From positions 2,950,302 to 3,014,301 of the forward strand of contig CP070775.1 of assembly GCA_020346185.1 (NCBI GenBank): a DNA stretch of 64,000 nucleotides, in the 5' to 3' direction. This stretch comes from Betaproteobacteria bacterium (GTDB lineage Bacteria; Pseudomonadota; Gammaproteobacteria; Burkholderiales; Eutrophovitaceae). The position numbers and the translations under genes are program-made. Within the stretch, counting starts at the first letter, position 1. Every line of letters starts with the position of its first letter. The notes beneath the pieces are model-generated. The model made no database searches and was not told where the DNA came from. It saw only the letters and a program-made list of their open reading frames with translations. Below are positions 17,266 to 48,054 of the stretch, piece by piece.

Positions 17266-17294
17266 GCAAGATTCGACTGTACAGGTAACGAGCA

Positions 17295-24505: not shown

Positions 24506-25336
24506 ATGACAAGAGTAGCGATTATCGGAGCAGGCGGAAAAATGGGTTATCGGGTGTCCTCCAACTTGAAGGATGCACACTATGACGTGAGCCATGTTGA
24601 AGTCAGCGAAGCCGGGCGCGAGCGGCTCAAGGAACTGGGCATCACTTGTGTCGATACTGATACCGCGCTAGCCGATGCGGACTTCGTGATCCTCACCATT
24701 CCCGACAACATGATCGAGAAAGTCACCAAGCAGTTGGTTGACAAGTTCAAAAAGGGCGCAACCCTGATCGCATTGGACGCGGCGGCGCCGTTCGCAGGAC
24801 ATTTGCCGGCGCGTAAGGACCTGACGATTTTCGTTGCCCATCCTTGTCATCCGCCGATCTTCAACGACGAGACCGATCTCGAAGCCAAGCGCGATTACTT
24901 TGGCGGCATCAAAGCCAAGCAGGCAATTGTCTGCGCGTTGTTGCGTGGAGATGAGAAGAACTATGCGGTGGCTGAAGATGTCGCCAAGCGCATGTATGCA
25001 CCGGTGATGCGTTCGCATCGCGCCACCGTCGAGCAAATGGCGATGCTCGAGCCAGCGCTGTCGGAGACGGTTTGCGCAACTTGCCTGACGGTGATCCGTG
25101 AAGCAACCGACGAGGCAGTCAAGCGCGGCGTGCCGGCGGAAGCGGCGCGCGATTTCATTCTCGGGCACCTCAATGTCGAATTGGCGATTCTGTTCGATCA
25201 GCTGCCGGGCGTTCGGATGTCGGACGCAGCCAACAAGGCGGTGGAAGAGGCGAAGAAAAAGATATTTGCGCCGGACTGGAGGAAGGTGTTCGACCGCGAA
25301 GAAATCGCCGCAAACATCCAGGCGATCACGAGCTGA
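24506..25336 (+). CDS. NAD(P)-binding dehydrogenase (ProC/prephenate-dehydrogenase-like Rossmann N-domain with helical C-domain)
   Basis: MTRVAIIGAGGKMGYRVSSNL Rossmann motif. 276 aa. Resembles proteins annotated as phosphogluconate-dehydrogenase-C-terminal-domain proteins. Confidence 0.7.
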   Translation: MTRVAIIGAGGKMGYRVSSNLKDAHYDVSHVEVSEAGRERLKELGITCVDTDTALADADFVILTIPDNMIEKVTKQLVDKFKKGATLIALDAAAPFAGHLPARKDLTIFVAHPCHPPIFNDETDLEAKRDYFGGIKAKQAIVCALLRGDEKNYAVAEDVAKRMYAPVMRSHRATVEQMAMLEPALSETVCATCLTVIREATDEAVKRGVPAEAARDFILGHLNVELAILFDQLPGVRMSDAANKAVEEAKKKIFAPDWRKVFDREEIAANIQAITS

Positions 25337-29221: not shown

Positions 29222-29479
29222 GGTACCTGTCAGCCGCGTTTGCAGACGGTGAATGGGCTGGATTCCTCTTTTGCAAAGTTTGCCGTTTGGTCGACGGCAT
29301 TTACAGGGTCAGGCGATAACCAGCCGGGACCGTACCCGAGAATACCACCGTGATCTAAGAATGTTCGGGCTCGACAGAGCGAAAGTGTATGCTTGCCGCA
29401 CCCTTGTAGTGGTCTTCTTGTCAACCGGGCGAGAATCAGTGTAGGTTCGACCTGAACGGCAACGTACTTGGGAGATGGC

Positions 29480-31189
29480 ATGGACGCGAAGTTTTGGAAT
29501 TTTGGAGCAGTTATTCGGATCGCGACAATCAATGCGACGCTGGCCGTTTCAATTGTCTTCACCGGACCTTCGATAGCGGCCAACGAGATTGTCCACGACG
29601 CCGAGTATTACATTCTGCAGCAACAACACGGCAAAGCCTGGAGAGCCGAGGATAAAGCCATCGACCAGCGACTGGCCGACTTTCGCAAGAAGAACGGCGG
29701 CAAGCCGCCGAACGTTTTCTACATCCTGATCGATGATATTGGCTTCGGTGATCTCGGCAGCGACTCGCTCAATGCCATACGGGGTTACAAGACGCCGTCA
29801 ATCAACAAGTTCGCCCGCGAAGGCATGCGCCTGGCACGTATGTACACGGAGCCTTCCTGCACGCCGACGCGCGTGGCTTTTATGACAGGGCGCCAACCGC
29901 ACCGAAACGGCATGGGTAATACGTCGGTCGATATTTCCGGCTTCGGTCTCGCCGGCAAGGAAGTCACCCTGGCCGAGATACTCTCGGAAAAGGGCTACAA
30001 CACTGCGCATATCGGGAAGTGGCACATGGGTGATATCAGGGAGTCGTGGCCCAATTTCCAGGGTTTTGACTTCGCGGCCTTTCCGATCCATCAGCAAGGC
30101 CAGTTGACGATCTTCAATGACGAAGCGGCTAATGAAGAAGTCAGCGTTGGCATCGGCGGCAACAACTACGACGACCGCTACACCCTCGATGGATGGTTGC
30201 GCACCGATGCGTCGAGCATGGTGACGGGTGTGGAGGGCTACCGTAACAAACCCGTGCGAGAGGTGTACATGAAGCCCGGCGAGCGCTGGACCGAGGCCAA
30301 ATACGAAGCGATGAACCGGCGCTACCAGCAACAGACCTTGGAGCAGCTTCGCAAGCTGGCCAAGCAGGGTAAGCCCTTCTTCTTGCAGTATTGGCCTTTG
30401 TACCCGTTGACAGGACCCCGCACTGCCTATGAGGAATACACCACACCCAATGGCGGCACCTACGTGGAAAAGATGAAGCTTCTGGACCAGTGGATCGGTG
30501 AGTTGCTGGCCGAGATGGAGAAGTTGAATGTGGCCGATAACACGCTTGTCGTCATCATGGGTGACAACGGCCACTTCACCAAGTATTCGCCTCAATCCGG
30601 CTATACGCCGATGATCTTTCGCGGCGGTAAAGGGTCAACTACCGAAGGCGGCGTGCGCGTGGATGCGTTCGTGCGGTGGCCAGGCATGATCGAGTCCGAT
30701 ACCGTTGTCGGCGATATCATTCATGTGGCCGACCTGTTCACGACCATTGCCCGCCTCGGCGGTGCCACGGAAGGAATCCCGGGAGACCGCATCATCGACG
30801 GCATCGACCAGACCGCCTTGCTGCTCAAGGGTGACTCCCACGGTCGCCGCGATTACGTATTCATCTACAACATCGACAAACTGGAAGCAGTGGTCAAGGA
30901 GCAATACAAGCTGGCCATTCCCGGCGGCAATATCGACAACGCGATTCTCGCTGACTTCTATGACCTGTTCCGCGATCCGCGGGAAAGATATCCGGTCTCG
31001 ACGGAAATTGGCGCCTGGGGCGGCGCCAAATTCGTTCGCATGATCCAGCGTCACATGAAACGCAAAGCCAAGTACCCGAGCGAGGGCCCCGCAATTGGAA
31101 TGCCCTATGAAGGCATTGAAAACCTGCGCCCGGAATCGAAAGCTGCAGTCCGGGAATTTCTGTTCATGATGAAGTCACCTGAAATGTAG
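29480..31189 (+). CDS. Cys-type arylsulfatase family protein (exported)
   Basis: Signal-like N-terminus. PNVFYILIDDIGFGDLG, formylglycine motif CTPTRVAFMTGR, GKWHMGD. The track starts at TTG 29468; I prefer ATG 29480. Confidence 0.88.
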   Translation: MDAKFWNFGAVIRIATINATLAVSIVFTGPSIAANEIVHDAEYYILQQQHGKAWRAEDKAIDQRLADFRKKNGGKPPNVFYILIDDIGFGDLGSDSLNAIRGYKTPSINKFAREGMRLARMYTEPSCTPTRVAFMTGRQPHRNGMGNTSVDISGFGLAGKEVTLAEILSEKGYNTAHIGKWHMGDIRESWPNFQGFDFAAFPIHQQGQLTIFNDEAANEEVSVGIGGNNYDDRYTLDGWLRTDASSMVTGVEGYRNKPVREVYMKPGERWTEAKYEAMNRRYQQQTLEQLRKLAKQGKPFFLQYWPLYPLTGPRTAYEEYTTPNGGTYVEKMKLLDQWIGELLAEMEKLNVADNTLVVIMGDNGHFTKYSPQSGYTPMIFRGGKGSTTEGGVRVDAFVRWPGMIESDTVVGDIIHVADLFTTIARLGGATEGIPGDRIIDGIDQTALLLKGDSHGRRDYVFIYNIDKLEAVVKEQYKLAIPGGNIDNAILADFYDLFRDPRERYPVSTEIGAWGGAKFVRMIQRHMKRKAKYPSEGPAIGMPYEGIENLRPESKAAVREFLFMMKSPEM

Positions 31190-32557: not shown

Positions 32558-33547
32558 GTGACAGTTACGACCAAGCCGGATGCGCGACTGATCAGCGTGC
32601 TGCACAGCGCCGGGCTCATTGGCGACGCAGCACAGGCTTCTTTTGAGGTCTTGACCGGCGGCGTGTCTTCCGGCATCTGGAAAGTCACCACGCCAACGCG
32701 TACATTCTGAGTCAAACGGGCCTTGCCGAAGCTGAAGGTCGCTGTCGACTGGCTGGCACCGGTGGAGCGCAATCGCTTCGAGGTGGCCTGGTACAGCATC
32801 GCGCATTCGATCGTGCCCGAGGCGGTGCCCGCGATCCTGTATCACGATGACAGCGAAATGCTGTGCGCCATGGCCTATATCGACCCGGCAGAGCATCGGC
32901 TGTGGAAGCTGCAACTGCGTGACGGTCGGGCGGAGCTGGCGGACGCCGCCGCGGTGGGCTCTCGCCTCGGGCGCATTCACGCTGCCACCGCGAACAACCC
33001 TGATGTTGCGGCGCAGTTTCCACCCAACGATAGTTTTCACGCCATCCGGCTCGAGCCTTACCTGGAAGCAACCGCTGCTACGCATCCCGACTTGCACGAA
33101 GCATTGTTCGAACTCAGCGAGCGAACCCGGCGATTGCAGATTGCCATGGTGTACGGCGATGTTAGCCCGAAGAAGATTCTGCTGGGCCCAAACGGGCCGG
33201 TGTTTCTCGACGCCGAGTGCGCCTGCATCGGCGATCCAGCGTTCGACGTGGCGTTTTGTCTCAACCACCTGTTACTGAAATCGTTGTGGAATCGCCCAGC
33301 GCAGGCCGCGTTCGGGGCGTGTTTTCAGGCGCTCACTGATGCCTATCTCGAGCAAGTGGAATGGGAGCCGCGCGAATCGCTCGAGACTCGCGCCGCCAGT
33401 TTGTTACCGGCATTGCTGTTGGCGCGGGTGGACGGCAAGTCGCCCGTGGAATACATCGAGACCGACACGCAACGCGAGCACGTGCGCCGCCGTGCCCGAC
33501 CTTTGATCAAGATACCGCCCAAACAACTGGTAGACGTATTTCCGTAA
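32558..33547 (+). pseudogene. MtnK/APH-like phosphotransferase, paralog of 40962-41984, interrupted by an in-frame TGA at 32708-32710
   Basis: The frame is open from 32522. GTG 32558 gives VTVTTKPDARLISVLHSAGLIGDAAQASFEVLTGGVSSGIWKVTTPTRTF*VKRALPKLKVAVDW..., continuous with track ORF 32723-33547 (VYGDVSPKKILLGPNGPVFLDAECACIGDPAFDVAFCLNHLL). The TGA sits where the paralog has Cys (RKVCVKFALSKLRV). Confidence 0.7.
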
Positions 33548-33606: not shown

Positions 33607-34557
33607 TCACACGACGCGGTGCACTAGGTCCTCTCCGCGCATGAAGGCCAGACTGTTTCTCACTGCAACGTCGACGCAGCGTGACAGCGTTTCATTGGTG
33701 AGCCACGCCACGTGAGGCGTCACAACGACATTGTCGAGTGATAGCAAGGGATTCTGCGGCGAAACCGGTTCCTGATCGAAGACATCCAGTCCGGCGGCAC
33801 ACAAATGACCGCTTTTCAGGGCGCCGTTCAATGCGCCCTCGTCAACAAGTTCACCTCGTGCTGTATTGACTAATATAGCGCTGGGTTTCATCAGTGCGAG
33901 CCGTGACCGGTTGATCAAATGGTGTGTTTCCGGTGTAGCAGGGACGTGCAACGTGACAATGTCTGACTGCTCAAGGAGCGCTTCGAGTGAGGCAAACTCA
34001 TACGGAACCGTTTTCGGCTTCCGGGCGTGATAGATTACCCGTGCGCCCATTACCTGAAGGATAGGTGCGAGTATCCCTGGAATTGCTCCGAAACCGACGA
34101 ACCCGACGGTGCGTCCACCGATCTCGCCAAGCGCATCCTTGGTCTCGGCATCGAGATACCAGGCGCCGTTTCTACACGCGCGATCCAGGACAGAGGATCT
34201 GCGCAGCGCCCCGAGCATCAGGAGCAGGGTCATTTCGGCGACCGCCTGGCTGTTGGTTCCAGGCATGTTGCATACAGCGATGTTACGCGCTTTGGCCGCT
34301 TCAAGGTCAATCGTGTTCACTCCGACCCCGAGCTTCTGGATCAACTTCAGGTTTGGCGCGCATTGGATGATTTCTGCCGTAACAGGTTGCAGCACGTGCC
34401 AGAGAATCTGCGCGTTTTGGATCTTGTCATGGAAGGGTGTATCGGCACCTTCGGGACAGCAGGTCACGACGAGGCCTTGCTCGCTTAATTGTTCGACGCG
34501 GCTGCGCAGTTGCTGGCCAGCAGCATAGTGAAACAGCACTTTCATAGGTTTACTCAT
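33607..34557 (-). CDS. D-isomer-specific 2-hydroxyacid dehydrogenase (glycerate/hydroxypyruvate/phosphoglycerate dehydrogenase-like)
   Basis: GRTVGFVGFGAIPGILAP NAD motif, NTARGELVDEGAL, TPHVAWLT catalytic His context. Start is ambiguous (34545, 34557 or 34590). Confidence 0.88.
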   Translation of the reverse strand: MSKPMKVLFHYAAGQQLRSRVEQLSEQGLVVTCCPEGADTPFHDKIQNAQILWHVLQPVTAEIIQCAPNLKLIQKLGVGVNTIDLEAAKARNIAVCNMPGTNSQAVAEMTLLLMLGALRRSSVLDRACRNGAWYLDAETKDALGEIGGRTVGFVGFGAIPGILAPILQVMGARVIYHARKPKTVPYEFASLEALLEQSDIVTLHVPATPETHHLINRSRLALMKPSAILVNTARGELVDEGALNGALKSGHLCAAGLDVFDQEPVSPQNPLLSLDNVVVTPHVAWLTNETLSRCVDVAVRNSLAFMRGEDLVHRVV

Positions 34558-34563
34558 GATATC

Positions 34564-34607
34564 CAATTGATTTGTTGTCTGATATATCAATTGACAGTCA
34601 GATATAT
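34564..34607. promoter_or_regulatory. Candidate operator: duplicated CAATTGA-N-GTCnGATATAT unit in the divergent promoter region
   Basis: CAATTGAtttgttGTCTGATATAT (34564-34587) is immediately followed by CAATTGAcaGTCAGATATAT (34588-34607). It lies between or overlapping the 5' ends of the dehydrogenase gene and GntR gene 34658. Confidence 0.3.
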
Positions 34608-34657
34608 GTTACATAGAATATGGCCTGTATCCAGCCGGGTGAATCAGCTGAATACGG

Positions 34658-35335
34658 ATGAATCACGTGTCTACGAATCCTATATCGCTTCAGCAATCGA
34701 TCGAGTCGAAATCGGAACAAGCGTACCGGATGCTGGAAGAAATGATCGTAACCATGGATCTCCAGCCCGGGGCGCTGTTATCCGAGTCGCGGCTGGTCGA
34801 AATGCTCGGCCTCGGACGCACGCCGATTCGGGAAGCCCTGCAGCGCCTGGCTACGGAGGGCCTGGTCGAAATCATGGCTCGTCGCGGCATTCGGGTTACC
34901 GACATCAACATCCGCCAGCAGTTGCGCCTGCTCGAAGTCAGGCGTGCACTCGAACAACTGAACATCCGCTTGTCGGCGCGTCGTGCCAACCACACCATTA
35001 AAGAGCAGTTTGCCCGTATCGCTGATGGTATGAGTGCGGCCGCACGTGACAACGACTACAAGTCGTTTCTTCATCTGGATAGAGACCTCAACGAATTGAT
35101 CGCGGTTGCCGCAGACAATGAATATTCAGCTCAGATGCTGCAGAAAATCCATGGCCTGTCACGACGGTTCTGGCACAAGCACTATCTGCAGGTGGATGAC
35201 CTCGCCGAGGTCGCCGGTTTGCATGCAGCGATTGCGCAAGCCATCGCTGATGGCGACGAAGAAGCTGCGGCAGCGGCATCGGTGGCACACATGGATTACA
35301 TCCAGTCCTTCACATTGTCGACCCTGGACCTGTAA
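34658..35335 (+). CDS. GntR-family (FadR/FCD) transcriptional regulator, first gene of the corrinoid methyltransferase operon
   Basis: SEQAYRMLEEMIVTMDLQPGALLSESRLVEMLGLGRTPIREALQRLATEGLV plus an FCD-like C-terminus. The stop lies 3 nt before the next ATG. Confidence 0.9.
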   Translation: MNHVSTNPISLQQSIESKSEQAYRMLEEMIVTMDLQPGALLSESRLVEMLGLGRTPIREALQRLATEGLVEIMARRGIRVTDINIRQQLRLLEVRRALEQLNIRLSARRANHTIKEQFARIADGMSAAARDNDYKSFLHLDRDLNELIAVAADNEYSAQMLQKIHGLSRRFWHKHYLQVDDLAEVAGLHAAIAQAIADGDEEAAAAASVAHMDYIQSFTLSTLDL

Positions 35336-35338
35336 GCA

Positions 35339-35974
35339 ATGAGTCACACGCCCTTTATCGGAAAACGCATTGAGCTGGTCTCAATGGATCCGCACTTTCA
35401 CGACATATCGATTGGATTGTACGAGCAGCAACATCAGGGTAAACCGGTGTATCTCGTGCACACCTACAGCCACAAAGAGGGCACCGAAAAGCGGATCAAT
35501 TTTGTGGTTGAAACAATGAAAACATTCGGGGGTCTCGAATCCGCCGACGACGGTTTGTTGCAGTTCCCGTGCGGCGAGCAGCACGCGTTGGCAATCAAAC
35601 GTGTTTTCCTTGATTCGTGCAAGGTCGCACCGCAAAGCAATGCCACGGCACATCCGCTACGAATCCACGACAAGAAATCGGGTTGTGACGTAACCGCCGA
35701 ATCTCTCGGTAACGGTGAGTACCGGTTGCAGACTGAAGGTGACCCGGGGGACGGCCCGCGCCGTATTGCCGCCATTGCCCGGGGGCTCGCCAAGCTGGGC
35801 GAGATGGAAACTTACGATGACCAAATTGACAAGGTGACTTTTGCCTGCGGGCAGTCACACGACGCTTTGATCGGTCTGCTGCTGATCCGTGCGCCCAATG
35901 TGCGGGCCGTCATGCGGGAGGTGGAGATGATGGCCGCGCGCGGCGTGCTTGCGGCACCCGGTGCTCAGCAATGA
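35339..35974 (+). CDS. Hypothetical protein with an internal tandem duplication and a repeated F-x-C-G-x-x-H-x-A-L motif
   Basis: 211 aa. RINFVVETMKTFGGLESADDGLLQFPCGEQHALAIKRVFL (aa 52-91) aligns with RIAAIARGLAKLGEMETYDDQIDKVTFACGQSHDALIGLLLI (aa 142-183). No family recognised. Confidence 0.6.
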   Translation: MSHTPFIGKRIELVSMDPHFHDISIGLYEQQHQGKPVYLVHTYSHKEGTEKRINFVVETMKTFGGLESADDGLLQFPCGEQHALAIKRVFLDSCKVAPQSNATAHPLRIHDKKSGCDVTAESLGNGEYRLQTEGDPGDGPRRIAAIARGLAKLGEMETYDDQIDKVTFACGQSHDALIGLLLIRAPNVRAVMREVEMMAARGVLAAPGAQQ

Positions 35975-36067
35975 GCGAAAAGAAACAAGCGCGCAGCAAT
36001 AAGTACGCAGCAACAAGACAGGCAGCGCCCGCAAACCGGAACGAAGAGACAGAAAAGGAGGCTAGAC

Positions 36068-37117
36068 ATGTCCACTCAAGACATCGCACCCATGACGAGC
36101 CGCGAACGAGTGCTTGCAGCCCTGAGACGCGAACCGGTTGACCGTACGCCGGTATGCAATCCGACTTCGGTGGCGACAGTTGAACTGATGGATCTGGTGG
36201 ACGCGCCGTTCCCGGACGCGAATCGCAAAGCGGAGTTGATGGCGCGACTGGCGGCAACGAGTTACACCGAACTCGGTTTCGACACCGTCATGCCCGTGTT
36301 CACCATCATCCAGGAATCGTCGGCGCTGGGCTGCAAGATTCAGTGGGAAAAGAAAGACAACTGGCCGACGGTGAGAATGACCGAGCCGATCTGGTCAGAG
36401 CCGGAGGACATCAAGATTCCTGCAGATTTCATGGACCATCCTGATACGCGCTGCGTCATCGATGCGATCAAGATTCTGCGCAAGGAATTGGGTGACGACG
36501 TTGCCATCATCGGCAAGACGATGGGGCCATGGTCGCAGGGCTATCACTGTTTCGGTGTCGAACGCTTCCTGCTCATGTCACGGGACGATCCGGACAAGAC
36601 AAAGCGCTGCCTCGACAGACTGAAAGACCTTACCGTCGCGTACGGTATCGCCCAGTTTGAAGCCGGTGCTGATGCCGTGACGCTTCCGGACCACGCAACA
36701 GGCGACCTGGTCAGCGGCCAGTACTACGATCGCTACTTGCTGGATTTGCACACCGAGTTTGTCGAGCGCATCCCCGGGCCAATCATTTTGCACATTTGCG
36801 GGCGGACGGTGGATCGAATGGACTCTATCGCACGCACGGGGATGTCGGCTTTCCACTACGACTCGAAGAATGGAGCACAGGAGTCAATGGACGTAGTCAA
36901 GGATCGCATTGCTCTGGTCGGCAATATCAATAACCCGCAAACCTTGTTCGCACGCGGGCCAGAGGAAGTTCGGAAAGAGGTCTACGAGAACCTGGACGCC
37001 GGTATTCACATGGTTGGTCCCGAGTGCGCTATTCCCCTGCAGACTTCGATCGAGAACCTGAAAGAGATTCCGCTGGCGGTGAAGGATTGGCACAAACAGC
37101 ACGCGGCTAAGCACTAA
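36068..37117 (+). CDS. Uroporphyrinogen-decarboxylase-fold methyltransferase (MtaA/MtbA/CmuA-N-like, corrinoid-dependent)
   Basis: 349 aa, AAGGAGG SD. MTSRERVLAALRREPVDRTPVCNPTS...SSALGCKIQW...ILHICG are typical of MtaA-like URO-D family methyltransferases. Confidence 0.8.
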   Translation: MSTQDIAPMTSRERVLAALRREPVDRTPVCNPTSVATVELMDLVDAPFPDANRKAELMARLAATSYTELGFDTVMPVFTIIQESSALGCKIQWEKKDNWPTVRMTEPIWSEPEDIKIPADFMDHPDTRCVIDAIKILRKELGDDVAIIGKTMGPWSQGYHCFGVERFLLMSRDDPDKTKRCLDRLKDLTVAYGIAQFEAGADAVTLPDHATGDLVSGQYYDRYLLDLHTEFVERIPGPIILHICGRTVDRMDSIARTGMSAFHYDSKNGAQESMDVVKDRIALVGNINNPQTLFARGPEEVRKEVYENLDAGIHMVGPECAIPLQTSIENLKEIPLAVKDWHKQHAAKH

Positions 37118-37147
37118 ACGAGAAGACACGCAACGAGAGGACTGGCC

Positions 37148-37909
37148 ATGGCGCAACTTGCCGACGTCACCAACGAATTCATTCGCGAGGAGATTGAAGA
37201 ATACATCCAGCGTCCCGATGAGATCGAGCGCATCGTGGAATTGTTCGCCCGAGTCAGCCCAAAGATGCAAGACATCGCAGCCGCAATCATCGAAGGTGAG
37301 GACGATGTCGCCGACGAGCTGACCCAACAAGCACTCGCCGACGGTGTCGACGCACTGGAAATCATGGACGATGGCCTGATTGCCGGCATGAGCATCGTCG
37401 GTATCAAGTTTCGCGAAGCATACATATTCGTGCCGGAAGTGCTCGCTTGCGCCCGGGCGATGAAGGCGGGCATGGCGTATATCGAGCCGATACTCTCGGC
37501 TGCCGGCGTCGAATCACAAGGGACCGTGATCATGGGTACCGTCAAAGGCGATCTGCACGACATCGGCAAGAATCTTTGCATAATGATGCTGCGCGGCGCC
37601 GGCTTTACAGTGCATGACCTCGGTGTCGATGTTGGTGAAGATACCTTTATCGACGCTGTGGAGGAACACGGAGCACCCATTCTCGGAATGTCAGCCCTGC
37701 TCACCACGACCATGCCCAACATGGGCAAGACCATCGAAGCATTCATCGATGCGGATCTGCGCGAAGACGTGAAGATCATGGTCGGCGGTGCACCGGTTAC
37801 CCAGGAATTTGCCGATGACATGGGTGCCGATGGTTATGGCAAGGACGCGCTTTCCTGCGTCGCGCTGGCCAAGTCGCTGATGCAAGAGGTCAAGGCCGAA
37901 AGCGCCTGA
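37148..37909 (+). CDS. Cobalamin-binding corrinoid protein (B12-binding_2 helical cap + B12-binding Rossmann domain)
   Basis: 253 aa. D-x-H-x-x-G motif GDLHDIGKNL (nt 37550-37567), ILGMSALLTTTMP, VKIMVGGAPV. Confidence 0.9.
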   Translation: MAQLADVTNEFIREEIEEYIQRPDEIERIVELFARVSPKMQDIAAAIIEGEDDVADELTQQALADGVDALEIMDDGLIAGMSIVGIKFREAYIFVPEVLACARAMKAGMAYIEPILSAAGVESQGTVIMGTVKGDLHDIGKNLCIMMLRGAGFTVHDLGVDVGEDTFIDAVEEHGAPILGMSALLTTTMPNMGKTIEAFIDADLREDVKIMVGGAPVTQEFADDMGADGYGKDALSCVALAKSLMQEVKAESA

Positions 37910-37938
37910 GCTTAAGTGACTTTGAGTTTCAGTGTCGT

Positions 37939-39855
37939 GTGAGTTCCAGCATCATGTCCAAATCCCGTCAGGCAGAGTTTCAAAAACGGCTCGACCGGCT
38001 GACCGAGATCTTTACCGATATCGTTATCCAGGCGGACATACAGTCACAGACTCGCTGCCCCTACAAGAATGCACAGGACGAGTGCACTGCGCAGTTCGGT
38101 TGTCAGAACAAACGCAAGAAAATTATCGATGGCGAGAAAGCATTTATCTGTGTTGGTGACGGCAAGCTGGACTATCGAACCGCCTGGGAAACCGAGCCTG
38201 AAGCCAGACGGGCAGTCAAGGACGCGCTGACATCAAAGCGTAGAGCGAGCAGGCGCGACCGCGAAGTCCGGAGAACGCTTTTTGATTTCGCAGACGAACT
38301 GTCCCGACAGGTCCCGACCTCGTGCGGTCGCAGCGGTATCTGTCACGAGTGTGTTGTCGAAGTGCGTCATGGCATCAAGGCATTGGCGCCGCGAACCGAA
38401 GCAGAGTCCTTTCTGCAGGGCGAATACCGGCTGGCCTGTCAGGCTGTCATTGTGGACCCAGAGGCCGACATCGATTTTGCTCCGCTGCGCCGCGTGCCCA
38501 GGATTCTCAAAGAAGGGCGCAGGAGAGACATTGACCTCGACCCAATGGTGTCCCGCAGTGGGGACAAGGTCTGTTACGACGGCAAGCTGATCGATGATTA
38601 TCGCGGCCATATGTACGGTCTCGCTGTTGATCTGGGTACCACAACCGTCGTCATGGAACTGATCGATCTTGAAACGGGAGAAACGATCCAGATCAGCGCT
38701 TTTGAGAACCCGCAACGCTTTGGCGGAAGCGATGTCATGAATCGTATCTCCTACGACGGGCGAAACAAGAGCGAATTGTGGAGAGCGATCGCCAACACGA
38801 TCAACTACGAGATCCAACGCCTGGGTGACCAGTTCGGCTTCTCGCACCGGGAAATATACGAAATTGTCGTGGTCGGCAATTCGACGATGCGAGACATTTT
38901 CTTTCGCCTCGATGTTACGAGTATCGGCCAGAAACCTTATATATCGCTGACTGAATATGAACTACGTCAAGGGAAGCGTGATACGACGGCACTTGTCGGA
39001 ACCAGCCGGCGACTGGGACTCAAGGTTAACCGCAGTGCCAGGGTATACAGCCCGCCGTTGATTGCGAGTCACGTCGGTTCTGACGTCACGGCGGGTCTTG
39101 GTGCGGTGGATTTCGACAAGGACGAGCGCACTGTCATGCTTGTCGACGTCGGTACCAACACGGAAGTGGTCATCCGACATGGGGGGCGCATGTTGACAGC
39201 GTCGTGTCCCGCCGGGCCCGCATTCGAAGGCGGTCTGGTGCGCTACGGCATGCCCGGCTATGAAGGGGCAATCGACAGCATCCGTTTCACCGGCGATGCG
39301 TTTGATTACACGACAATCGGCAGTGTCGAGCCGGAAGGACTGTGCGGCTCCGGGCTGATCGACTTACTGGCTGAATTGCGACGTCACAACCAGATGTCGG
39401 CGAAGGGCGTGTTCGCCAACAAGAGACAGCGCGAAATGACATTGGTGCCGGAACGCAGCATCACATTTTCGCGCGAGGATGCCAGCAATCTTGCTCAGGC
39501 CAAGGCGGCCAACTACTGTGGCCAGTTCATCCTTATGCGTCATCTCGGTCTGGCACCTTCTGACATCGACAAGTTGTACCTCGCCGGTGCCTTCGCCAAC
39601 TACGTCGACGTGCGCAACGCGATGGACATCGGGTTCTTGCCGAACGTACCCGAAGAGCGGATTGAAAAGATTGGCAACGCGGCAATACAGGGCGCAAGGG
39701 AAATATTGCTCTCACGGGAACAGCGTCGCCGTGCCGAAAACTTCGTCCGGACGATCGAGCACATCGAACTCGAGACGACGCCAGATTTTTTCGAGATATT
39801 TGTCGAGGGCTGCCAGCTCAAACCAATGCCGGAACGCCTCGAACATTGGACTTGA
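37939..39855 (+). CDS. Reductive activator of corrinoid enzymes (RACE / RamA-like ASKHA ATPase with N-terminal 2Fe-2S ferredoxin-like domain)
   Basis: 638 aa. CGRSGICHECVV ferredoxin-type motif, GLAVDLGTTTVVMELIDL and VMLVDVGTNTEVV ASKHA phosphate motifs. The start could instead be ATG 37954. Confidence 0.82.
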   Translation: MSSSIMSKSRQAEFQKRLDRLTEIFTDIVIQADIQSQTRCPYKNAQDECTAQFGCQNKRKKIIDGEKAFICVGDGKLDYRTAWETEPEARRAVKDALTSKRRASRRDREVRRTLFDFADELSRQVPTSCGRSGICHECVVEVRHGIKALAPRTEAESFLQGEYRLACQAVIVDPEADIDFAPLRRVPRILKEGRRRDIDLDPMVSRSGDKVCYDGKLIDDYRGHMYGLAVDLGTTTVVMELIDLETGETIQISAFENPQRFGGSDVMNRISYDGRNKSELWRAIANTINYEIQRLGDQFGFSHREIYEIVVVGNSTMRDIFFRLDVTSIGQKPYISLTEYELRQGKRDTTALVGTSRRLGLKVNRSARVYSPPLIASHVGSDVTAGLGAVDFDKDERTVMLVDVGTNTEVVIRHGGRMLTASCPAGPAFEGGLVRYGMPGYEGAIDSIRFTGDAFDYTTIGSVEPEGLCGSGLIDLLAELRRHNQMSAKGVFANKRQREMTLVPERSITFSREDASNLAQAKAANYCGQFILMRHLGLAPSDIDKLYLAGAFANYVDVRNAMDIGFLPNVPEERIEKIGNAAIQGAREILLSREQRRRAENFVRTIEHIELETTPDFFEIFVEGCQLKPMPERLEHWT

Positions 39856-39861
39856 CCAGGA

Positions 39862-40914
39862 TTGAGCGAAATGAAGCTTGAAGGCCGTGACAGCACATTC
39901 ATTGTCATAGGAGAGAACATTCACACCACCCGCGTATACCTGCGGCGCGGAAAGCATATCGTCACGACGCCGGCCGGAGCGGAGGCGGTGCGATTTATCG
40001 ACCACAATGGTGACCAGCAGTTTCTGCTGATCCCGGACCATATCAAGAAGACCCAGGACTACGAGGAAGGCCGGATCAAACACATGAAGATCGCCGTGCA
40101 GGCGGCGATGAGCGGCAGTGGGGATCAGGCAAAGCTCGGCGAGGAATACCTGGAGCTGCAGATCAAGCGTCAGATCGACAGTGGCGCGGATTTCCTGGAT
40201 ATCAATGTCGACGAGATATCGGTGCGTGAAGCCGAGCAGCAGGATGCAATGCGGTGGCTCGTTCAATTCGTACAGGCGCGCAGTTCAGTACCGCTGTGTG
40301 TCGACTCATCCAATTCGAACACAATTGAGATCGGGCTTGAAGCCGGCGACAACCGGGCGGGACGGCAGATGCTCAACTCGGCGTCGCTGGAACGAATGAG
40401 CGCACTCGACCTTGTCGGCGAGCACGATGCCTGTGTCATTGTGACGGCCGCCGGAGAATCCGGCATGCCGCAAAACGCCGAGGAGCGGGTCACTAATGCA
40501 TCGCGAATGGTCGATGCATCGATTGAAAGAGGCATTGCACTGGGTGATATCTACATTGATCCGTTGATGTTTCCGATTTCAGTGGATCAGCAGTTCGGCA
40601 ACCATGTTTTCGATGCGATTCGACAACTGCGTCAGAAATACGGACCGGAGATTCACATTACCGGAGGTTTCAGCAATGTGTCGTTTGGCTTGCCTTGCCG
40701 CAAACTGATCAACGACGCGTTTGCCGTGCTTGCCATCGAAGCTGGAGCCGACAGCGGCATCGTCGATCCGGTTGCCAACGACCTGCGGCGTGTCTTCATG
40801 ATTGACCAGGCCTCGCTGCCGTTCGAACACGCCAAGGCGATGCTGCTCGGCGGTGACCCGGACTGCCGGGCTTACCTGAAGGCGTATCGCAAAAAGCTAT
40901 TCGCAGTTTATTGA
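39862..40914 (+). CDS. Pterin-binding (DHPS-like) methyltetrahydrofolate:corrinoid methyltransferase (MeTr/AcsE/CmuB/MtvA-like)
   Basis: 350 aa. FIVIGENIHTT, GADFLDINVDE, LCVDSSN, MLNSASLE, YIDPLMFPIS, GGFSNVSFGLP are the pterin-binding TIM-barrel signatures. The start could instead be ATG 39871. Confidence 0.82.
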   Translation: MSEMKLEGRDSTFIVIGENIHTTRVYLRRGKHIVTTPAGAEAVRFIDHNGDQQFLLIPDHIKKTQDYEEGRIKHMKIAVQAAMSGSGDQAKLGEEYLELQIKRQIDSGADFLDINVDEISVREAEQQDAMRWLVQFVQARSSVPLCVDSSNSNTIEIGLEAGDNRAGRQMLNSASLERMSALDLVGEHDACVIVTAAGESGMPQNAEERVTNASRMVDASIERGIALGDIYIDPLMFPISVDQQFGNHVFDAIRQLRQKYGPEIHITGGFSNVSFGLPCRKLINDAFAVLAIEAGADSGIVDPVANDLRRVFMIDQASLPFEHAKAMLLGGDPDCRAYLKAYRKKLFAVY

Positions 40915-40961
40915 GGTCCAACGTTTGATAGATCGTATCGAATTATTATCGGGAGAAAGAC

Positions 40962-41984
40962 GTGTCTTTGAGTAGCACCGATACACTGCAAAGCCGTTGT
41001 GCCGACCTGGTGCACAAACTGGGCTTGGCTCTGCCCGAGGACATCTCATCAGTTCAGCCGCTCGCCGGCGGTGTCGCATCCGATATTGCCGCTGTTGACT
41101 TTAGCGGCCGCAAAGTCTGCGTCAAGTTCGCCTTGTCAAAGTTGCGCGTTGCCGACGACTGGCATGCGTCGATTGACCGTAACAGTGCAGAGTACGCATG
41201 GCTGGAATTCGCCGGACGAGCCGTTCCGGGTTCGGTCCCCGCACTTTTCGGCCGCGACGCTGATCTCAACGGATTCGCAATGGAGTTCGTGAAAGGCGAA
41301 GACATTTACAACTGGAAGACTGAACTGATGCAACGGCGGCCACGCCCGGACGAAGCGGCGAAAGCAGGCGAGGTGCTGGGCAAGATCCACGCGGCATCGA
41401 CGGCATCGGATTTCGATGCAGTCAAGTTTCAGAATCAAGACAGCTTTTACGAACTGCGCCTCGAACCCTATTTCGGTTTTACCGCGCAGAAGCACCCGGA
41501 ATTGCGGTCCATTCTGGAACAATTAATCACCCGTTTGCAGGAAATATCAACGGTATTGATACACGGGGACGTGAGTCCCAAGAACATCCTGTTCAGAGAT
41601 GGTCAGCCGGTTTTTCTGGATGCCGAGTGCGCAACCATGGGCGATCCGGCTTTCGACGTTGCCTTTTGCATGAATCACCTCATGCTGAATTGGTTTCACT
41701 TTCGCGACACGACCGACGATTTCCTGTTGGGTGTGACTGAATTCTGGGATGGGTACTGGCCGCATGTTTGTTGGGAAGATGCATCGGCGCTAGAGAAAAG
41801 AATCTGTGAATTGTTGCCAGCACTGTTGCTTGCGAGAGTCGACGGCAAGTCGCCAGTCGAATACCTGGACGAATACAATCAGAAGAGGGTGCGGCATTTT
41901 GCGATTGCAGTATTGACCGACCCGCCGGCCAGCCTAGCGGAATTTAAGAGCCGGGGCGATGCGGTTCTGGAGGTTAGACCGTGA
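40962..41984 (+). CDS. MtnK/APH-like phosphotransferase (intact paralog)
   Basis: 340 aa, GTG start after GGGAGA. LIHGDVSPKNILFRDGQPVFLDAECATMGDPAFDVAFCMNHL (catalytic loop and DxE/D metal-loop analogue). The stop overlaps the enolase start (GTGA). Confidence 0.8.
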   Translation: MSLSSTDTLQSRCADLVHKLGLALPEDISSVQPLAGGVASDIAAVDFSGRKVCVKFALSKLRVADDWHASIDRNSAEYAWLEFAGRAVPGSVPALFGRDADLNGFAMEFVKGEDIYNWKTELMQRRPRPDEAAKAGEVLGKIHAASTASDFDAVKFQNQDSFYELRLEPYFGFTAQKHPELRSILEQLITRLQEISTVLIHGDVSPKNILFRDGQPVFLDAECATMGDPAFDVAFCMNHLMLNWFHFRDTTDDFLLGVTEFWDGYWPHVCWEDASALEKRICELLPALLLARVDGKSPVEYLDEYNQKRVRHFAIAVLTDPPASLAEFKSRGDAVLEVRP

Positions 41985-43273
41985 GTGCGATCGCAAATGT
42001 GCGAGGCCGGCGCGTGTGGGATTCACGCGGCCGGCCGACGGTGGAGGCCGAGGTCATGCTGCAGGGCGGGACACGTGGCCGCGCGATTGCGCCGGCCGGT
42101 GCGTCGACCGGCAAGGAAGAGGCGGTCGATCTGCGCGACGGTGGCGAGGCGTTTGGCGGTTACGACGTTCGAAAAGCGATCGCTGCGGTCAACGGCGAGA
42201 TTGCCAAGCTCCTCGAGGGCCAGGATGCGACCGACCAAGCCGGAATCGATGCCGCGCTGATCGAGCTCGACGGCACGCCGAACAAGGAACGCCTCGGCGG
42301 TAACGCGCTCGTCGCGACTTCGATGGCAATTGCCCACGCCGCGGCTGCTGCGCACGATATGCCGCTGTGGCGTTATCTTGGCGAAGGCCGAAATGAATTC
42401 CACCTGCCTTTGCCGGAGATACAAATCTTCGGCGGTGGTGCGCATGCCGGACGCCGCGTCGACGTGCAGGACTTCATGATCATTGCAGTGGGTGCGGCCG
42501 ACTACGCACAGGCGCTCGAATGGACCGCTGAAGTCTACCGAGCGGCCGGTGCACTGATGAAAGAAGCCGGACTGTTGCAAGGCGTGGCAGACGAGGGTGG
42601 TTTCTGGCCCGCGTTCGACAACAACGAAAAAGCGCTCGACTTTCTGATGCGCTCAATCGAACGTGCCGGCTACACGCCGGGACAAGACGTGGCAATTTCG
42701 CTCGATATTGCAGCGTCCGACTTCGGCAAGCACGGCCGTTACACGCTCGCACTCGACGGGCAGGAAGTGGATTCCGACGGCCTGAGCGAAATGCTGCTTG
42801 GCTGGTTGGCTCGCTATCCGATCGTTGCGATCGAGGATCCGCTCGGTGAAGACGACCCGGAAGGAATGAGCAGATTCACTAGAGCGGCGGGGCCGGGCGT
42901 CGAAGTTGTGGCAGACGATTTCATTTGCACTGGTGCGGCGCGCGTTGAACGTGCGGCCGGACTGGGTGCATGCAACACGGCATTGATCAAACCCAATCAG
43001 GCCGGTACGCTGACTGAAACACGCGCAGCACTGGATGCGGCGCGCGCGGCGGGTTGGGAGAGCATCGTGTCGGCGCGCTCGGGGGAAAGCGAGGACGTGA
43101 CCATCGTGCACATGGCCGTAGGTTGGGGCGCGAAGCAACTCAAAGTGGGTTCGTTCTCGCGCTCGGAGCGGATGGCCAAATGGAACGAGGGCCTGCGCAT
43201 TGCAGAGGCACTGGACCAGGGCGGTGGGCGGCTCGCACCGCGCACTGAATTCCCTTGGGGAAGCGGTGGCTGA
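41981..43273 (+). CDS. Enolase-family protein, divergent paralog
   Basis: 430 aa. WDSRGRPTVEAEV, APAGASTG, ADEGGFWP, SLDIAASDF, AIEDPLGEDD, VVADDF, LIKPNQAGT, KVGSFSRSERMAKWN. However, QDFMI replaces canonical QEFMI, and SARSGESED replaces canonical SHRSGETED. Confidence 0.88.
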   Translation: MSAIANVRGRRVWDSRGRPTVEAEVMLQGGTRGRAIAPAGASTGKEEAVDLRDGGEAFGGYDVRKAIAAVNGEIAKLLEGQDATDQAGIDAALIELDGTPNKERLGGNALVATSMAIAHAAAAAHDMPLWRYLGEGRNEFHLPLPEIQIFGGGAHAGRRVDVQDFMIIAVGAADYAQALEWTAEVYRAAGALMKEAGLLQGVADEGGFWPAFDNNEKALDFLMRSIERAGYTPGQDVAISLDIAASDFGKHGRYTLALDGQEVDSDGLSEMLLGWLARYPIVAIEDPLGEDDPEGMSRFTRAAGPGVEVVADDFICTGAARVERAAGLGACNTALIKPNQAGTLTETRAALDAARAAGWESIVSARSGESEDVTIVHMAVGWGAKQLKVGSFSRSERMAKWNEGLRIAEALDQGGGRLAPRTEFPWGSGG

Positions 43274-45697: not shown

Positions 45698-46196
45698 GGG
45701 CCGAAATTCGACGTCCTAGTCGCGCAAGCTGCTGGCCATGGCGTCGAGCGACTCGAAACGGTTCGCCAACAACATGGGCGTAGCGCTAGGATGGCTGGGC
45801 ATCAGGGGCCAAAGGTTGGGTAAAACTGTAAGTTTTTTGATACTCGCATGAACTTCCGGTTGGGACAATACGGACTCTTCGAGTAAAGTGAGGAGAACTA
45901 CGTGGCAGCATCGACGAATGGCATGCCCGTGCTTTCATTCACGGTAGTAGATCGCAGCGCATTGTCGTTCTCCTGGAGAAAGTGCTTTACAGTCGAATTC
46001 GGGAATCATGTGCAGCCCCGGGGGGCGGTTCCTCTTGCTCATGACACGAAATGCCGGTCGGTGGTGGCTGTAATGACACGCTCGGCGTTTCTGGGACTCA
46101 AATGGCAAAGATGGGCGAGTGCCATGTTTCTTAGTTATGGAAAGTTCAGTTGAATCCGTATTGGATTTCAAACGGGAAAACAAAGGGGAAAGAAAT

Positions 46197-47942
46197 ATGA
46201 AAAGCACAGATAGCCAACGATTGGTTGTCAGCGTTTGCGCACTGGCTTTCTTACTGTTGGCCGGCGTAACGGCGGCCAATGCAGCGAGCAAAATCGTGCA
46301 CGACGCCGAGTACTACATCCTCGAGGCGCAGCACGGAGACAAGTGGCGGGCTGAAGACCGACAACTCGGCAAAAAGCTGGCGCAACTGAGAAGGAAGTTT
46401 GGCCGGCCGCCCAATCTGATCCATATCATGTGGGATGACACGGCTTACGGTGATGTCGGCATTCCGGCGATCCAGAAAGTGCGCGGCCTCAACACACCCA
46501 ATCTGAATGCCATGGCCGCTGAGGGGATCCTGTTCACACGCATGTACACCGAAGTCGGGTGCACCCCCAGCCGCGCGGCGTCGGCCACCGGCCGTCTCGC
46601 GATCCGCAGTGGCATGTACAACATCGGCATGCTTCTCGAAATGCACGGCATGCGCAAGGAAGAGGTGACGATTGCCGAAGTGCTGTCCAAGGCCGGATAC
46701 GCCACAGCGTTCCACGGCAAGTGGCATCTCGGTGATATCGAGGAGAGCTATCCCCACAATCAGGGCTTTGATGAGGCCTTCTTCACCGGCTACAACCAGC
46801 TCCTTTCACTGAACAGCAAGATTGCCGAACGAGCCAATGCCTCGATCGGACTGCATGAAGACTTGCTGCCACCGGACCCCTACAAGCTCGATGACACATT
46901 CGTTACCAAGGGGTGGGTGCAAATCGCCGAAGGCAAGAAAGGTCAGAAAGCGCGCCAGTGGGGCGACAATTCCCATGAGACCTATCTGAAGATCGATCCT
47001 GAGGCACAGCGGCGCACGCTGAAATTCATCGAGCGCAATGCCAAGGCCGGCAAGCCGTTCTACGTCGCCAACTGGCCGATGCTGGAGAGTTTTCTGCCCA
47101 ATCCCAAGAAATGCTCGGTGGCGCGAAGTCTTTTGCAGGGTGGCCTGGAATGCAATATCGATCCTTTCGTCGGACAACTGATGGCCAAGCTGAAGGAACT
47201 CGGTATTGCCGAGAACACGCTGGTGATTGCCATGGCCGATAACGGGCCCATGAGCCACAACCCGCCGCCGGGCGTGGGTATGGCCGAGACAATCTTCCGG
47301 GGCGGCAAGGGTGACTTTCTCGAGGGTGGCATTCGTGTGCCGGCCTCGGCCTGGTGGCCGGGCGTCATCAAGCCCGGGCAGTTGGTTGGCGACATCATTC
47401 ACGAAACCGATTTGTTTACCACGTTCGCCAGGCTGGCCGGTGCCATGCAGCATATCCCCGGCGATCGCGTCATTGACGGCATTGACCAGACCGCGTTGCT
47501 GATGAAAGGCGACACCAACGGCCGCCGCGATCATGTCTTCATCTACGCCGGGCCGCGGCTTGGTGCAACTGTCAAAGGCAATTACAAGCGCCACTGGATA
47601 TCACCGGACCCGGTTGGTGAGGCGAGCGGAATCCCTGCTGCTTTCTATTTCCTGCCTGCGGATCCGCGCGAAAAAACACCGATGCTGACGAACCTGATCC
47701 ACTTGAAAAGCCCGTTCAATCGAATGCGGCTGCGTCACGAGTTGTGGAAGCGTAAATATCCGGATGCCAAGGAGGTGCACGGCATACCCTGGACCGGCAT
47801 CGAGAATGCCACGCCCGAGATCAAGGCGCTCGCCAGGCCGAAAATGGATATCAAGAAACTGCCGTTCGACCCGCTGGAGTACATCGAGCACCTCGATCAA
47901 CTGCCCTTTGACCCGAATCTGGATCCGGATGTCGGCAGATAA
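46197..47942 (+). CDS. Cys-type arylsulfatase family protein (exported), paralog of 29480-31189
   Basis: Start at MKSTDSQRLVVSVCALAFLLLAGVTAANA (signal peptide). PNLIHIMWDDTAYGDVG, CTPSRAASATGR, GKWHLGD. Confidence 0.88.
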   Translation: MKSTDSQRLVVSVCALAFLLLAGVTAANAASKIVHDAEYYILEAQHGDKWRAEDRQLGKKLAQLRRKFGRPPNLIHIMWDDTAYGDVGIPAIQKVRGLNTPNLNAMAAEGILFTRMYTEVGCTPSRAASATGRLAIRSGMYNIGMLLEMHGMRKEEVTIAEVLSKAGYATAFHGKWHLGDIEESYPHNQGFDEAFFTGYNQLLSLNSKIAERANASIGLHEDLLPPDPYKLDDTFVTKGWVQIAEGKKGQKARQWGDNSHETYLKIDPEAQRRTLKFIERNAKAGKPFYVANWPMLESFLPNPKKCSVARSLLQGGLECNIDPFVGQLMAKLKELGIAENTLVIAMADNGPMSHNPPPGVGMAETIFRGGKGDFLEGGIRVPASAWWPGVIKPGQLVGDIIHETDLFTTFARLAGAMQHIPGDRVIDGIDQTALLMKGDTNGRRDHVFIYAGPRLGATVKGNYKRHWISPDPVGEASGIPAAFYFLPADPREKTPMLTNLIHLKSPFNRMRLRHELWKRKYPDAKEVHGIPWTGIENATPEIKALARPKMDIKKLPFDPLEYIEHLDQLPFDPNLDPDVGR

Positions 47943-48054
47943 GCTGCGCCACGGAAGCCGTTGCCCTGTTTTGACGCGACGGCTTCTGGCGATTCGGGCC
48001 AGAAGGAATCGCCACGGGGGAAAGGTCATCTACCATTTTGTGAAAAGGCATCGT

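Follow-up and report, generated by a model that had tools for sequence, protein, structure and literature searches.

In a 64,000-nucleotide stretch of DNA from a Betaproteobacteria bacterium (contig CP070775.1, positions 2,950,302–3,014,301; hereafter the window), eight open reading frames (ORFs) on the + strand follow one another with gaps of 3, 93, 30, 29, 6, 47, and −4 nt in the ORF listing, and encode a GntR/FCD-family regulator, a 211-aa protein with no family match, a set of proteins typical of corrinoid-dependent methyl transfer, a small-molecule kinase, and an enolase paralog (Table 1). The array had been outlined in a preliminary description made from the sequence alone; all eight ORFs were indeed found at the coordinates given there, and the domain assignments were borne out by Pfam and NCBIfam, with the exception of the kinase. 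The four middle genes, which had been read as the parts list of a corrinoid methyl-transfer system, carry the corresponding domains, and at the sequence level every feature of a corrinoid three-component methyltransferase with a RACE activator is present. To that outline we add a Cys-rich domain on the activator, a divergent 2-hydroxyacid dehydrogenase gene, a candidate operator, and the distribution of the system in phyla known mainly as sponge symbionts. Moreover, we found that the unit conserved among related loci is smaller than the eight genes.

Table 1 Genes and control elements of the array and its upstream flank
Feature	Position in window	Strand	Evidence
GntR/FCD-family transcriptional regulator	34658..35335	+	Pfam GntR 63 bits, FCD 80 bits
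211-aa protein, no family match	35339..35974	+	ORF listing, Pfam/NCBIfam
MtaA/CmuA-family (URO-D fold) corrinoid methyltransferase, presumed substrate:corrinoid MT-I	36068..37117	+	URO-D 228 bits
Corrinoid (cobalamin-binding) methyl-carrier protein	37148..37909	+	B12-binding_2 and B12-binding
RACo/RACE-type ATP-dependent reductive activator	37939..39855	+	Fer2, Raco_middle, and RACo_C_ter
Cys-rich domain fused to RACo, residues 1–86	37939–38196	+	Similarity to small ORF of locus L002
Pterin-binding MeTr-like methyltransferase, presumed methylcorrinoid:tetrahydrofolate MT-II	39862..40914	+	Pterin_bind 91 bits
APH-family small-molecule kinase	40962..41984	+	APH 78 bits
Enolase paralog	41981..43273	+	TIGR01060 455 bits
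D-isomer 2-hydroxyacid dehydrogenase (glyoxylate/hydroxypyruvate-reductase-like), divergent from operon	33607..34590	−	Pfam 2-Hacid_dh_C, 2-Hacid_dh
Candidate GntR operator, perfect palindrome TGATATATCA	34580–34589	+	Palindrome count and conservation; operator role putative
Sigma-70-like promoter TTGACA-17-TAGAAT	34591–34619	+	Promoter scan
Second kinase copy, interrupted, probable pseudogene	32558..33547	+	tblastn and translation

Components of the methyl-transfer core

The presumed substrate:corrinoid methyltransferase (MT-I) matches the URO-D family over its full length. Its scores exceeded the cutoffs of the MtaA/CmuA subfamily model TIGR01463 (262.9 vs 235.4 bits) and of NF004889 (265.8 vs 244) and stayed under those of the MtaA/MtbA equivalog models (NF040654, 243.8 vs 400; NF041608, 192.7 vs 600). 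Among PDB sequences it matched only MtaA and true UroDs, with 33% identity to the MtaA of Methanosarcina mazei (4AY7, E 2.5e-54), and its zinc motif, H242-x-C244...C320, aligns with the LHICG and PGC motifs of 4AY7. The corrinoid protein contains a B12-binding_2 domain and a Rossmann-type B12-binding domain (72.5 and 95.4 bits in Pfam), as well as the DxHxxG motif already reported for it, here DLHDIG at residues 135–140. The presumed methylcorrinoid:tetrahydrofolate (THF) methyltransferase (MT-II) matches PF00809 (Pterin_bind) well above the cutoff of 25.5 bits and scores 207 bits with NF005719, under the cutoff of 259.

The reductive activator RACo has the four 2Fe-2S cluster cysteines (C129, C135, C138, and C167), preceded by an additional Cys-rich domain that is 55% identical to the small ORF of L002. 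In Latescibacterota and Gemmatimonadota, this domain is a separate four-Cys ORF of about 80–95 aa between the corrinoid protein and RACo genes, and in the window it forms the N-terminal part of RACo itself. It was detected in 60 of the 60 loci containing RACo; it has four invariant cysteines and no Pfam match, and its AlphaFold2 model is of low confidence (predicted local distance difference test (pLDDT), 68.6; predicted template modelling score (pTM), 0.38).

The 211-aa protein is 100% identical to UCD68002.1 (JSW48_14595) and, in agreement with the preliminary description, gave no family match in profile searches of Pfam, NCBIfam, or PDB sequences; nor did a Pfam scan of all 27 aligned family members, at E values up to 10, yield anything usable. 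Its AlphaFold2 model (pLDDT, 86.7; pTM, 0.82) found no match at E<0.001 in a Foldseek search against the PDB, the best TM-score being about 0.2. The protein is an internal tandem duplication with homologous halves (hhalign probability 94.5%, E 7.8e-8), each bearing an F-x-C-G-x-x-H motif in register with the other, in which C78/H82 and C170/H174 are invariant; a Cys2His2 metal site is therein possible. The family comprises 661 clusters at 90% identity and occurs in 329 species in a scan of one genome per species. A HMMER search of 1.84 billion representative sequences retrieved 278 matches, all of 359 aa or less, none of which has a full-length match fused to URO-D or to another domain. The homologous halves suggest a pseudo-dimeric protein. 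The sole evidence linking it to MT-I is the strict adjacency of their genes described below, from which we infer that the two work together. It and the Cys-rich activator domain are the two conserved parts without a described counterpart.

A promoter scan detected a near-consensus promoter-like site preceding the GntR gene, with matches at 11 of 12 positions, and no convincing + strand terminator was predicted inside the array by the terminator scan. The palindrome TGATATATCA abuts the −35 box, exists as a single exact copy within the 64-kb window, and is kept upstream of the GntR gene in two related loci (L086 and L087); presumably, it is the GntR operator. Rfam searches found neither a B12 nor an S-adenosylmethionine (SAM) riboswitch in the window. 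For the divergent 2-hydroxyacid dehydrogenase, the best NCBIfam models all scored under cutoff, and the protein is 83% identical to that encoded at the same position in the sister genome CP070643. Elsewhere in the window, the interval 16489–18578 encodes a second GntR/FCD regulator, 57% identical to that of the operon, with a fatty-acid-hydroxylase-family protein before it and a DUF6166 protein after it.

The conserved unit and the kinase–enolase tail

A tblastn census yielded 85 related loci, to which the following gene counts refer. The 80 best loci all lie in metagenome-assembled genomes (MAGs; one is a single-cell genome) of Poribacteria, Latescibacterota, Gemmatimonadota, Ca. Moanabacter, Acidimicrobiia, and two proteobacterial lineages, host groups that we take, from established knowledge and isolate names, to be mostly sponge symbionts. 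In 85 of 85 loci the MtaA-like gene directly follows the 211-aa gene, with a median hit-edge gap of 36 nt. Present less uniformly are the corrinoid protein (61 loci), RACo (60), MTHFR fused to a DUF5981/MTHFR_C domain (41), a PF13769 protein of about 90 aa (41), Pterin_bind (40), and an S-methyl_trans homocysteine methyltransferase (33), for which the window contains no gene; crude gene calls place the GntR/FCD gene next to the system in at least 49 loci. Since the 211-aa gene precedes the URO-D gene without exception, and since in about 60 loci the genes for the corrinoid protein and RACo come next, this gene order is not a matter of chance. Thus, the conserved unit is not the eight-gene order that the preliminary description had suggested looking for in relatives; it consists of the GntR/FCD regulator, the 211-aa protein, the MtaA/CmuA-family MT-I, the corrinoid protein, and RACo with the Cys-rich domain, usually followed by the pterin methyltransferase, and does not include the enolase.

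Orthologues across phyla are 74–83% identical to the window's MT-I, 71–84% to its corrinoid protein, 56–71% to RACo, 55–77% to the pterin protein, and 52–69% to the 211-aa protein. Because MT-I and the corrinoid protein retain such identity across six or more phyla, one shared function is probable, and the same values point to a horizontal spread of the system across phyla. Among the loci listed, each complete chromosome has one locus. For this reason, the loci of Poribacteria that contain only the 211-aa/URO-D pair are taken as a split arrangement; we considered whether they are substrate-diversified paralogs and rejected this possibility, their MT-I being 76–77% identical to that of the window, with one locus per genome.

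Several other genes recur in or beside the cluster. In six Poribacteria loci (L010, L013, L016, L019, L027, and L031), small HNH-nuclease/antitoxin-like pairs and restriction-modification-like genes are inserted in the URO-D/corrinoid and RACo/MTHFR intervals. The PF13769 'Virulence_fact' protein is encoded directly after the Pterin_bind or S-methyl_trans gene (L002–L004, L010, and about 40 others) and thus accompanies the MTHFR and pterin methyltransferase genes. A PhyH-family dioxygenase gene lies between RACo and MTHFR in 17 Poribacteria loci (e.g., L010, 15469–16290), and ten loci of other groups have a related PhyH gene.

The last two genes of the array have a different history. The kinase belongs to the APH family and reaches only 51.3 bits with TIGR01767 (MtnK) against a cutoff of 275, so that its earlier designation as MtnK-like is not sustained; its PDB match to 2OLC is weak (E 4.5e-5), with no stretch passing the threshold alone. 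The enolase paralog exceeds the TIGR01060 cutoff (454.9 vs 300 bits) and keeps the DEGG, SLDIAAS, IEDPL, VADDF, IKPNQ, and LKVGS motifs, that is, the metal ligands and both catalytic lysine motifs; it thus shares with canonical enolase the motifs holding K345, K396, E211, the Ser loop, and the metal ligands. Canonical enolases have near-invariant QEFM and SHRSGE sequences, whereas comparison with 4MKS showed these to be QDFM and SARSGE in the paralog, and they recur as such in 121 of 121 and 119 of 121 clade members, respectively. The altered positions are presumably yeast E168 and H373, flanking the C3 leaving-group side of the active site, and a 2-phospho-acid other than 2-phosphoglycerate is a possible substrate. 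The clade gave 120 matches at 76–88% identity, from Sulfuritalea, Denitromonas, other Rhodocyclaceae, Gammaproteobacteria, and Kiloniellales.

In five other proteobacterial genomes (L089–L093), an APH kinase always precedes the enolase paralog with a 4-nt overlap (kinases of L089–L091 being 45–46% identical to that of the window, and the same pairing occurring in L092 and L093), in surroundings that are unrelated, often housekeeping, and devoid of corrinoid genes. Conversely, none of the 91 other corrinoid loci examined contains the enolase paralog, which occurs with the system only in the window. In the sister genome CP070643, both dehydrogenase and core are present, with no tail within 10 kb. 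Furthermore, the closest relatives of the tail are of the Rhodocyclales type (82–85% identical), while the core is shared with sponge-symbiont phyla, so the operon is a mosaic. The claim that kinase and enolase extend the methyl-transfer system was therefore abandoned, and we conclude from these gene distributions that the pair, probably together with the divergently transcribed 2-hydroxyacid dehydrogenase gene, is an independent module that became attached to the operon in this lineage alone. Its co-transcription with the core is plausible.

The same observations make it unlikely that all eight genes form one pathway, in which a demethylated 2-hydroxy acid (e.g., a glycerate-type acid from a methoxy acid) would be phosphorylated by the APH kinase and converted by the enolase paralog to a phosphoenolpyruvate-like enol phosphate, with the divergent dehydrogenase feeding the same pool. 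Such a pathway would fit the gap of only 47 nt between the pterin and kinase genes, with no terminator predicted, and the finding of a dehydrogenase of the same family (56% identical to the divergent gene) after the pair in L090 and of a beta-hydroxyacid dehydrogenase alongside it in L091; 2-Hacid_dh or Ldh_2 genes also recur near the corrinoid system in other phyla, and FCD regulators generally sense organic acids. What weighs against it is the existence of each part without the other, the pair in five genomes without corrinoid genes and the core in CP070643 and the 91 loci without the enolase, together with the different ancestries of tail and core.

Two further kinase sequences deserve mention. 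A second copy upstream of the array is 42% identical to the kinase and has an in-frame TGA near 32708, as seen by tblastn, translation, and codon reading, and is a probable pseudogene or the product of an assembly error. The APH kinases encoded upstream of the system in nine Latescibacterota loci were rejected as orthologs, being only 24–27% identical.

Direction of transfer and nature of the substrate

The preliminary description had proposed that the methyl group is removed onto THF, and the related loci argue for this direction. MTHFR is found in 41 loci, a PurU-type formyl-THF deformylase is encoded beside the cluster in L082 (Acidimicrobiia), and the GntR/FCD regulator with its conserved promoter palindrome, in the absence of a riboswitch from the window, gives the system a catabolic rather than a biosynthetic look. 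These features favour methyl removal onto THF, followed by oxidation or by use for methionine, as the better-supported direction.

On this basis, the core may be regarded as a substrate-inducible corrinoid-dependent demethylase that would operate as follows, every catalytic step being deduced from sequence and gene context. The GntR/FCD repressor would leave the palindromic operator on arrival of its ligand, probably a carboxylate. RACo, with its extra four-cysteine domain, would spend ATP to reduce Co(II) to Co(I) on the corrinoid protein. The MtaA-like zinc methyltransferase and the 211-aa tandem-repeat protein, acting as a unit, would then transfer the methyl group of the substrate to Co(I), from which the pterin-binding methyltransferase would pass it to THF. 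In other genomes, methyl-THF would be oxidised via MTHFR and PurU, or the methyl group would be delivered to methionine via the homocysteine methyltransferase.

The reverse direction would make the system a biosynthetic, split MetH-like machine, in which MTHFR generates methyl-THF, the pterin protein loads the corrinoid protein, and the MtaA-like enzyme and its partner deliver the methyl group to a thiol or another nucleophile, while the homocysteine methyltransferase found elsewhere makes methionine from the same carrier. Many loci do combine MTHFR, Pterin_bind, corrinoid protein, RACo, and S-methyl_trans, a set that corresponds to methionine synthase with its AdoMet domain replaced by a RACo, and the characterised MtaA enzymes methylate a thiol. 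We nevertheless consider this highly improbable: the window and its nearest relatives have neither MTHFR nor homocysteine methyltransferase in the operon, PurU in L082 indicates one-carbon (C1) oxidation, the regulation is of the GntR/FCD type with no B12 or SAM riboswitch, and the cluster sits within catabolic operons.

The substrate of the demethylase is the least secure part of this reading. The closest relatives after the sister genome are two gammaproteobacterial MAGs (L087 and L088) whose 211-aa proteins are 65–69% and MT-I 83% identical to those of the window. In both, the cluster lies within one same-strand array, between upstream genes for a sugar MFS transporter, an SDR, and two MR_MLE dehydratases (galactonate- and talarate/galactarate-dehydratase-like) and downstream genes for an L-DKDR-hydrolase-like FAH protein, an SDR, and an AldA-like aldehyde dehydrogenase. 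Beside this array are a Porphyrn_cat_1+BPA_C (GH86-type) porphyranase-type gene and a KDPG aldolase gene, and, in L087, a gene for an Agarase_CBM protein. Red-algal galactans carry 6-O-methyl-galactose. Because these closest copies sit in an agar/porphyran operon, an O-methylated sugar was ranked first among the candidate substrates, ahead of methyl-sulfur compounds and small C1 compounds, which are serious competitors. In the Latescibacterota and Gemmatimonadota, the loci include GFO/IDH/MocA dehydrogenases, a xylose-isomerase-like TIM barrel, a Cof-type phosphatase, an APC permease, and a GalK-like GHMP kinase, and in other phyla MR_MLE, HpcH aldolase, FAH, 2-Hacid_dh, or Ldh_2 genes recur near the system. 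We therefore favour, at a probability of roughly 0.45, a substrate-inducible corrinoid demethylase whose substrate is most likely an O-methylated carbohydrate or an O-methylated acid derived from one, the 6-O-methyl-galactose of red-algal galactans being an example. The methylated-glycan substrate put forward earlier as a speculation thus gains indirect support from two loci, without a constant sugar pathway accompanying the system.

Several observations weigh against a sugar substrate. MT-I falls in the MtaA/soluble coenzyme M (CoM) methyltransferase clade and keeps the His-Cys-Cys zinc site, which in characterised members activates thiols, not ether oxygens. The neighbourhoods vary by phylum, many of those in Poribacteria being housekeeping, and no transporter is conserved with the system. 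Carbohydrate genes abound in these symbiont genomes, so that part of the adjacency could be coincidental. To our knowledge, methanol (MtaB) offers the only precedent for the nucleophilic cleavage of an aliphatic methyl ether by Co(I), and sugars offer none.

With MtaA as the only PDB-sequence match besides true UroDs, the relationship of MT-I, taken alone, suggests sulfur chemistry. The system could then be a methyl-thioether or sulfonium demethylase acting on 3-methylthiopropionate (MMPA), dimethylsulfoniopropionate (DMSP), dimethylsulfide, or methanethiol and passing the methyl group via the corrinoid protein to THF, in parallel to MtsA/MtpA of Methanosarcina. The passing of the MtaA/CmuA model, the thiol-activating H-x-C...C motif, and the marine hosts would all suit such a function, as would the regulator, since FCD proteins usually sense carboxylates and both MMPA and DMSP are carboxylates. 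Moreover, an uncharacterised clostridial MtaA-like cluster has been proposed to act on methyl-sulfur or methyl-selenium compounds (PMC10418091). We regard a sulfur substrate as unlikely, however, because no mercaptopropionate or sulfur-oxidation genes recur beside the system and the closest relatives of the window's copy lie inside a galactan/sugar-acid operon; Cys-ligated zinc sites also activate oxygen substrates, as in MtaB.

A small volatile C1 substrate, methyl halide or methanol, would be common in sponge tissue or seawater, and the system would then be a Cmu-like pathway split into separate proteins, with the sugar genes nearby by coincidence. The MtaA/CmuA family model is passed by MT-I, the association with MTHFR and PurU resembles the metF/folD/purU genes of the cmu pathway, and the combination of high cross-phylum conservation with variable neighbourhoods fits a universal small substrate. 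Against this, a GntR/FCD regulator would be an odd sensor for a gas or methanol, MT-II belongs to PF00809 whereas CmuB is of the MtrH type, and the obligate 211-aa partner is left unexplained. The recently characterised chloromethane MT-I CdmB needs neither an accessory protein nor zinc chemistry (PMC13222342), and we judge a C1 substrate very unlikely.

Returning to the carbohydrate methyl ethers, the 211-aa protein could be what adapts the MtaA-like enzyme to them. It may represent a new kind of substrate-activating subunit, perhaps with a Cys2His2 metal site and with a fold that has no solved relative, which would enable the O2-free cleavage of aliphatic (carbohydrate) methyl ethers by the MtaA-like enzyme and a corrinoid carrier and would have spread horizontally through the sponge microbiome; this proposal is offered as a speculation that is somewhat unlikely to hold in full.

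Sulfatase ORFs in the window (29468–31189, 46119–47942, and 47764–49728) had been described as flanking the operon; the genes are nearby, 3.4 kb upstream and 2.8 kb downstream, and not contiguous with it, other genes lying in between. As called, the sulfatase ORF at 46119–47942 and the phosphodiesterase/sulfatase-type ORF at 47764–49728 overlap by about 180 nt, and the second start is probably further downstream. Elsewhere in the window (21795–25336), a RuBisCO-like protein (OiaX-like, 454 bits) and a DUF1537 kinase (OiaK-like, 498 bits), both under cutoff, are encoded together with a PGDH_C/NAD-binding protein in an apionate-type branched-sugar-acid cluster of uncertain specificity. The ILVD_EDD gene at 25905–27611 was rejected as a sugar-acid dehydratase, as it passes the IlvD cutoffs. 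On the − strand (4369–6375), a 668-aa protein combines a ferritin-like domain, two CDGSH iron-binding zinc fingers, and a divergent 4Fe-4S mono-cluster domain.

Relation to described systems and significance

Aromatic ethers, methanol, methylamines, quaternary amines, methyl sulfides, and methyl halides all have known corrinoid methyl-transfer systems, and the one considered here is of this familiar kind. Literature searches that covered sponge symbionts, corrinoid proteins, MtaA, porphyran, and methyl-galactose incompletely turned up no description of it. The three-component O-demethylases with a RACE activator (Odm/Vdm of Acetobacterium dehalogenans, Mtv of Moorella, and the Desulfitobacterium systems) share with it the URO-D-fold MT-I, the DxHxxG corrinoid protein, the pterin-binding MT-II, and the 2Fe-2S/ASKHA activator, and follow the same logic of moving a substrate methyl group to cobalt and then to THF. 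They lack, however, the 211-aa protein and the Cys-rich activator domain; the hosts here are non-acetogens, and the neighbourhood is carbohydrate-related rather than aromatic. The aromatic O-demethylase MT-I, named at first as the model, is probably not the nearest group: no such enzyme appeared among the PDB-sequence matches, in which MT-I is closest to methanogen MtaA, of a clade of thiol methylases. Clostridium ljungdahlii CLJU_RS09375 (resembling soluble CoM methyltransferases) is reported to be about 17% identical to OdmB/VdmB (Kountz and Balskus, PMC10418091).

The resemblance to methanogen MtaA/MtbA/MtsA rests on the 33% identity to M. mazei MtaA, the TIGR01463 score, and the identical H-x-C...C motif; those enzymes serve CoM chemistry, whereas the system here is bacterial, is coupled to a presumed THF methyltransferase, and scores under the equivalog cutoffs. 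CmuA fuses methyltransferase and corrinoid domains, and CmuB is of the MtrH type. The present system has instead separate methyltransferase and corrinoid genes and an MT-II that matches PF00809 only. Corrinoid-mediated methyl transfer to THF, with MTHFR/PurU-type genes in some related loci, is common to it and to CmuAB of Methylobacterium and CdmBCA of A. dehalogenans (PMC13222342); identity with the Cdm system was rejected, Cdm having no counterpart of the 211-aa protein (PMC13222342). The type 1 mlp clusters (Kountz and Balskus, PMC10418091), likewise uncharacterised, also combine MtaA-like proteins, a corrinoid protein, and a RACE activator, yet they contain two or three MtaA paralogs and no THF methyltransferase and belong to obligate anaerobes (PMC10418091). 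Identity with an mlp cluster was rejected as well, in view of the single URO-D gene, the Pterin_bind gene, and the 211-aa partner.

Demethylation of sugars by P450 yields formaldehyde. Methylated sugars block carbohydrate catabolism, and an oxidative, O2-dependent route catalysed by bacterial P450 has been described (PMC6292453). Were the substrate indeed a carbohydrate, the system would share its role, the removal of a methyl ether that hinders the breakdown of algal galactans, with the CYP236A 6-O-methyl-D-galactose demethylases of marine Bacteroidetes (PMC6292453), and both systems occur in or next to a porphyran/agar locus; the two have no homology, and in contrast to the O2-dependent oxidation by CYP236A, the transfer to THF would be O2-free and would conserve the methyl group. 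A corrinoid-dependent route of sugar demethylation was not found in the literature searched. Should the substrate indeed be a methylated sugar, the system would be an oxygen-independent counterpart of the P450 sugar demethylases and the first cobalamin- and folate-dependent sugar O-demethylase.

We know of no second function assigned to the enolase subgroup, which is regarded as having a single one, and the kinase–enolase module may hint at a second activity within it. The core is shared among Poribacteria, Latescibacterota, Gemmatimonadota, Acidimicrobiia, Verrucomicrobiota, and Proteobacteria to a degree that suggests selection for the trait within the sponge holobiont. The polysaccharides of high-molecular-weight marine dissolved organic matter are reported to be rich in methyl sugars, whose C1 groups have been proposed to feed methylotrophs, the enzyme not being named (PMC4817625). 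The present system is a candidate for this release of C1 units; if its substrate is a methylated sugar, that standing question would be answered, and the methyl sugars of algal glycans and marine dissolved organic matter would have in it a route into C1 metabolism.

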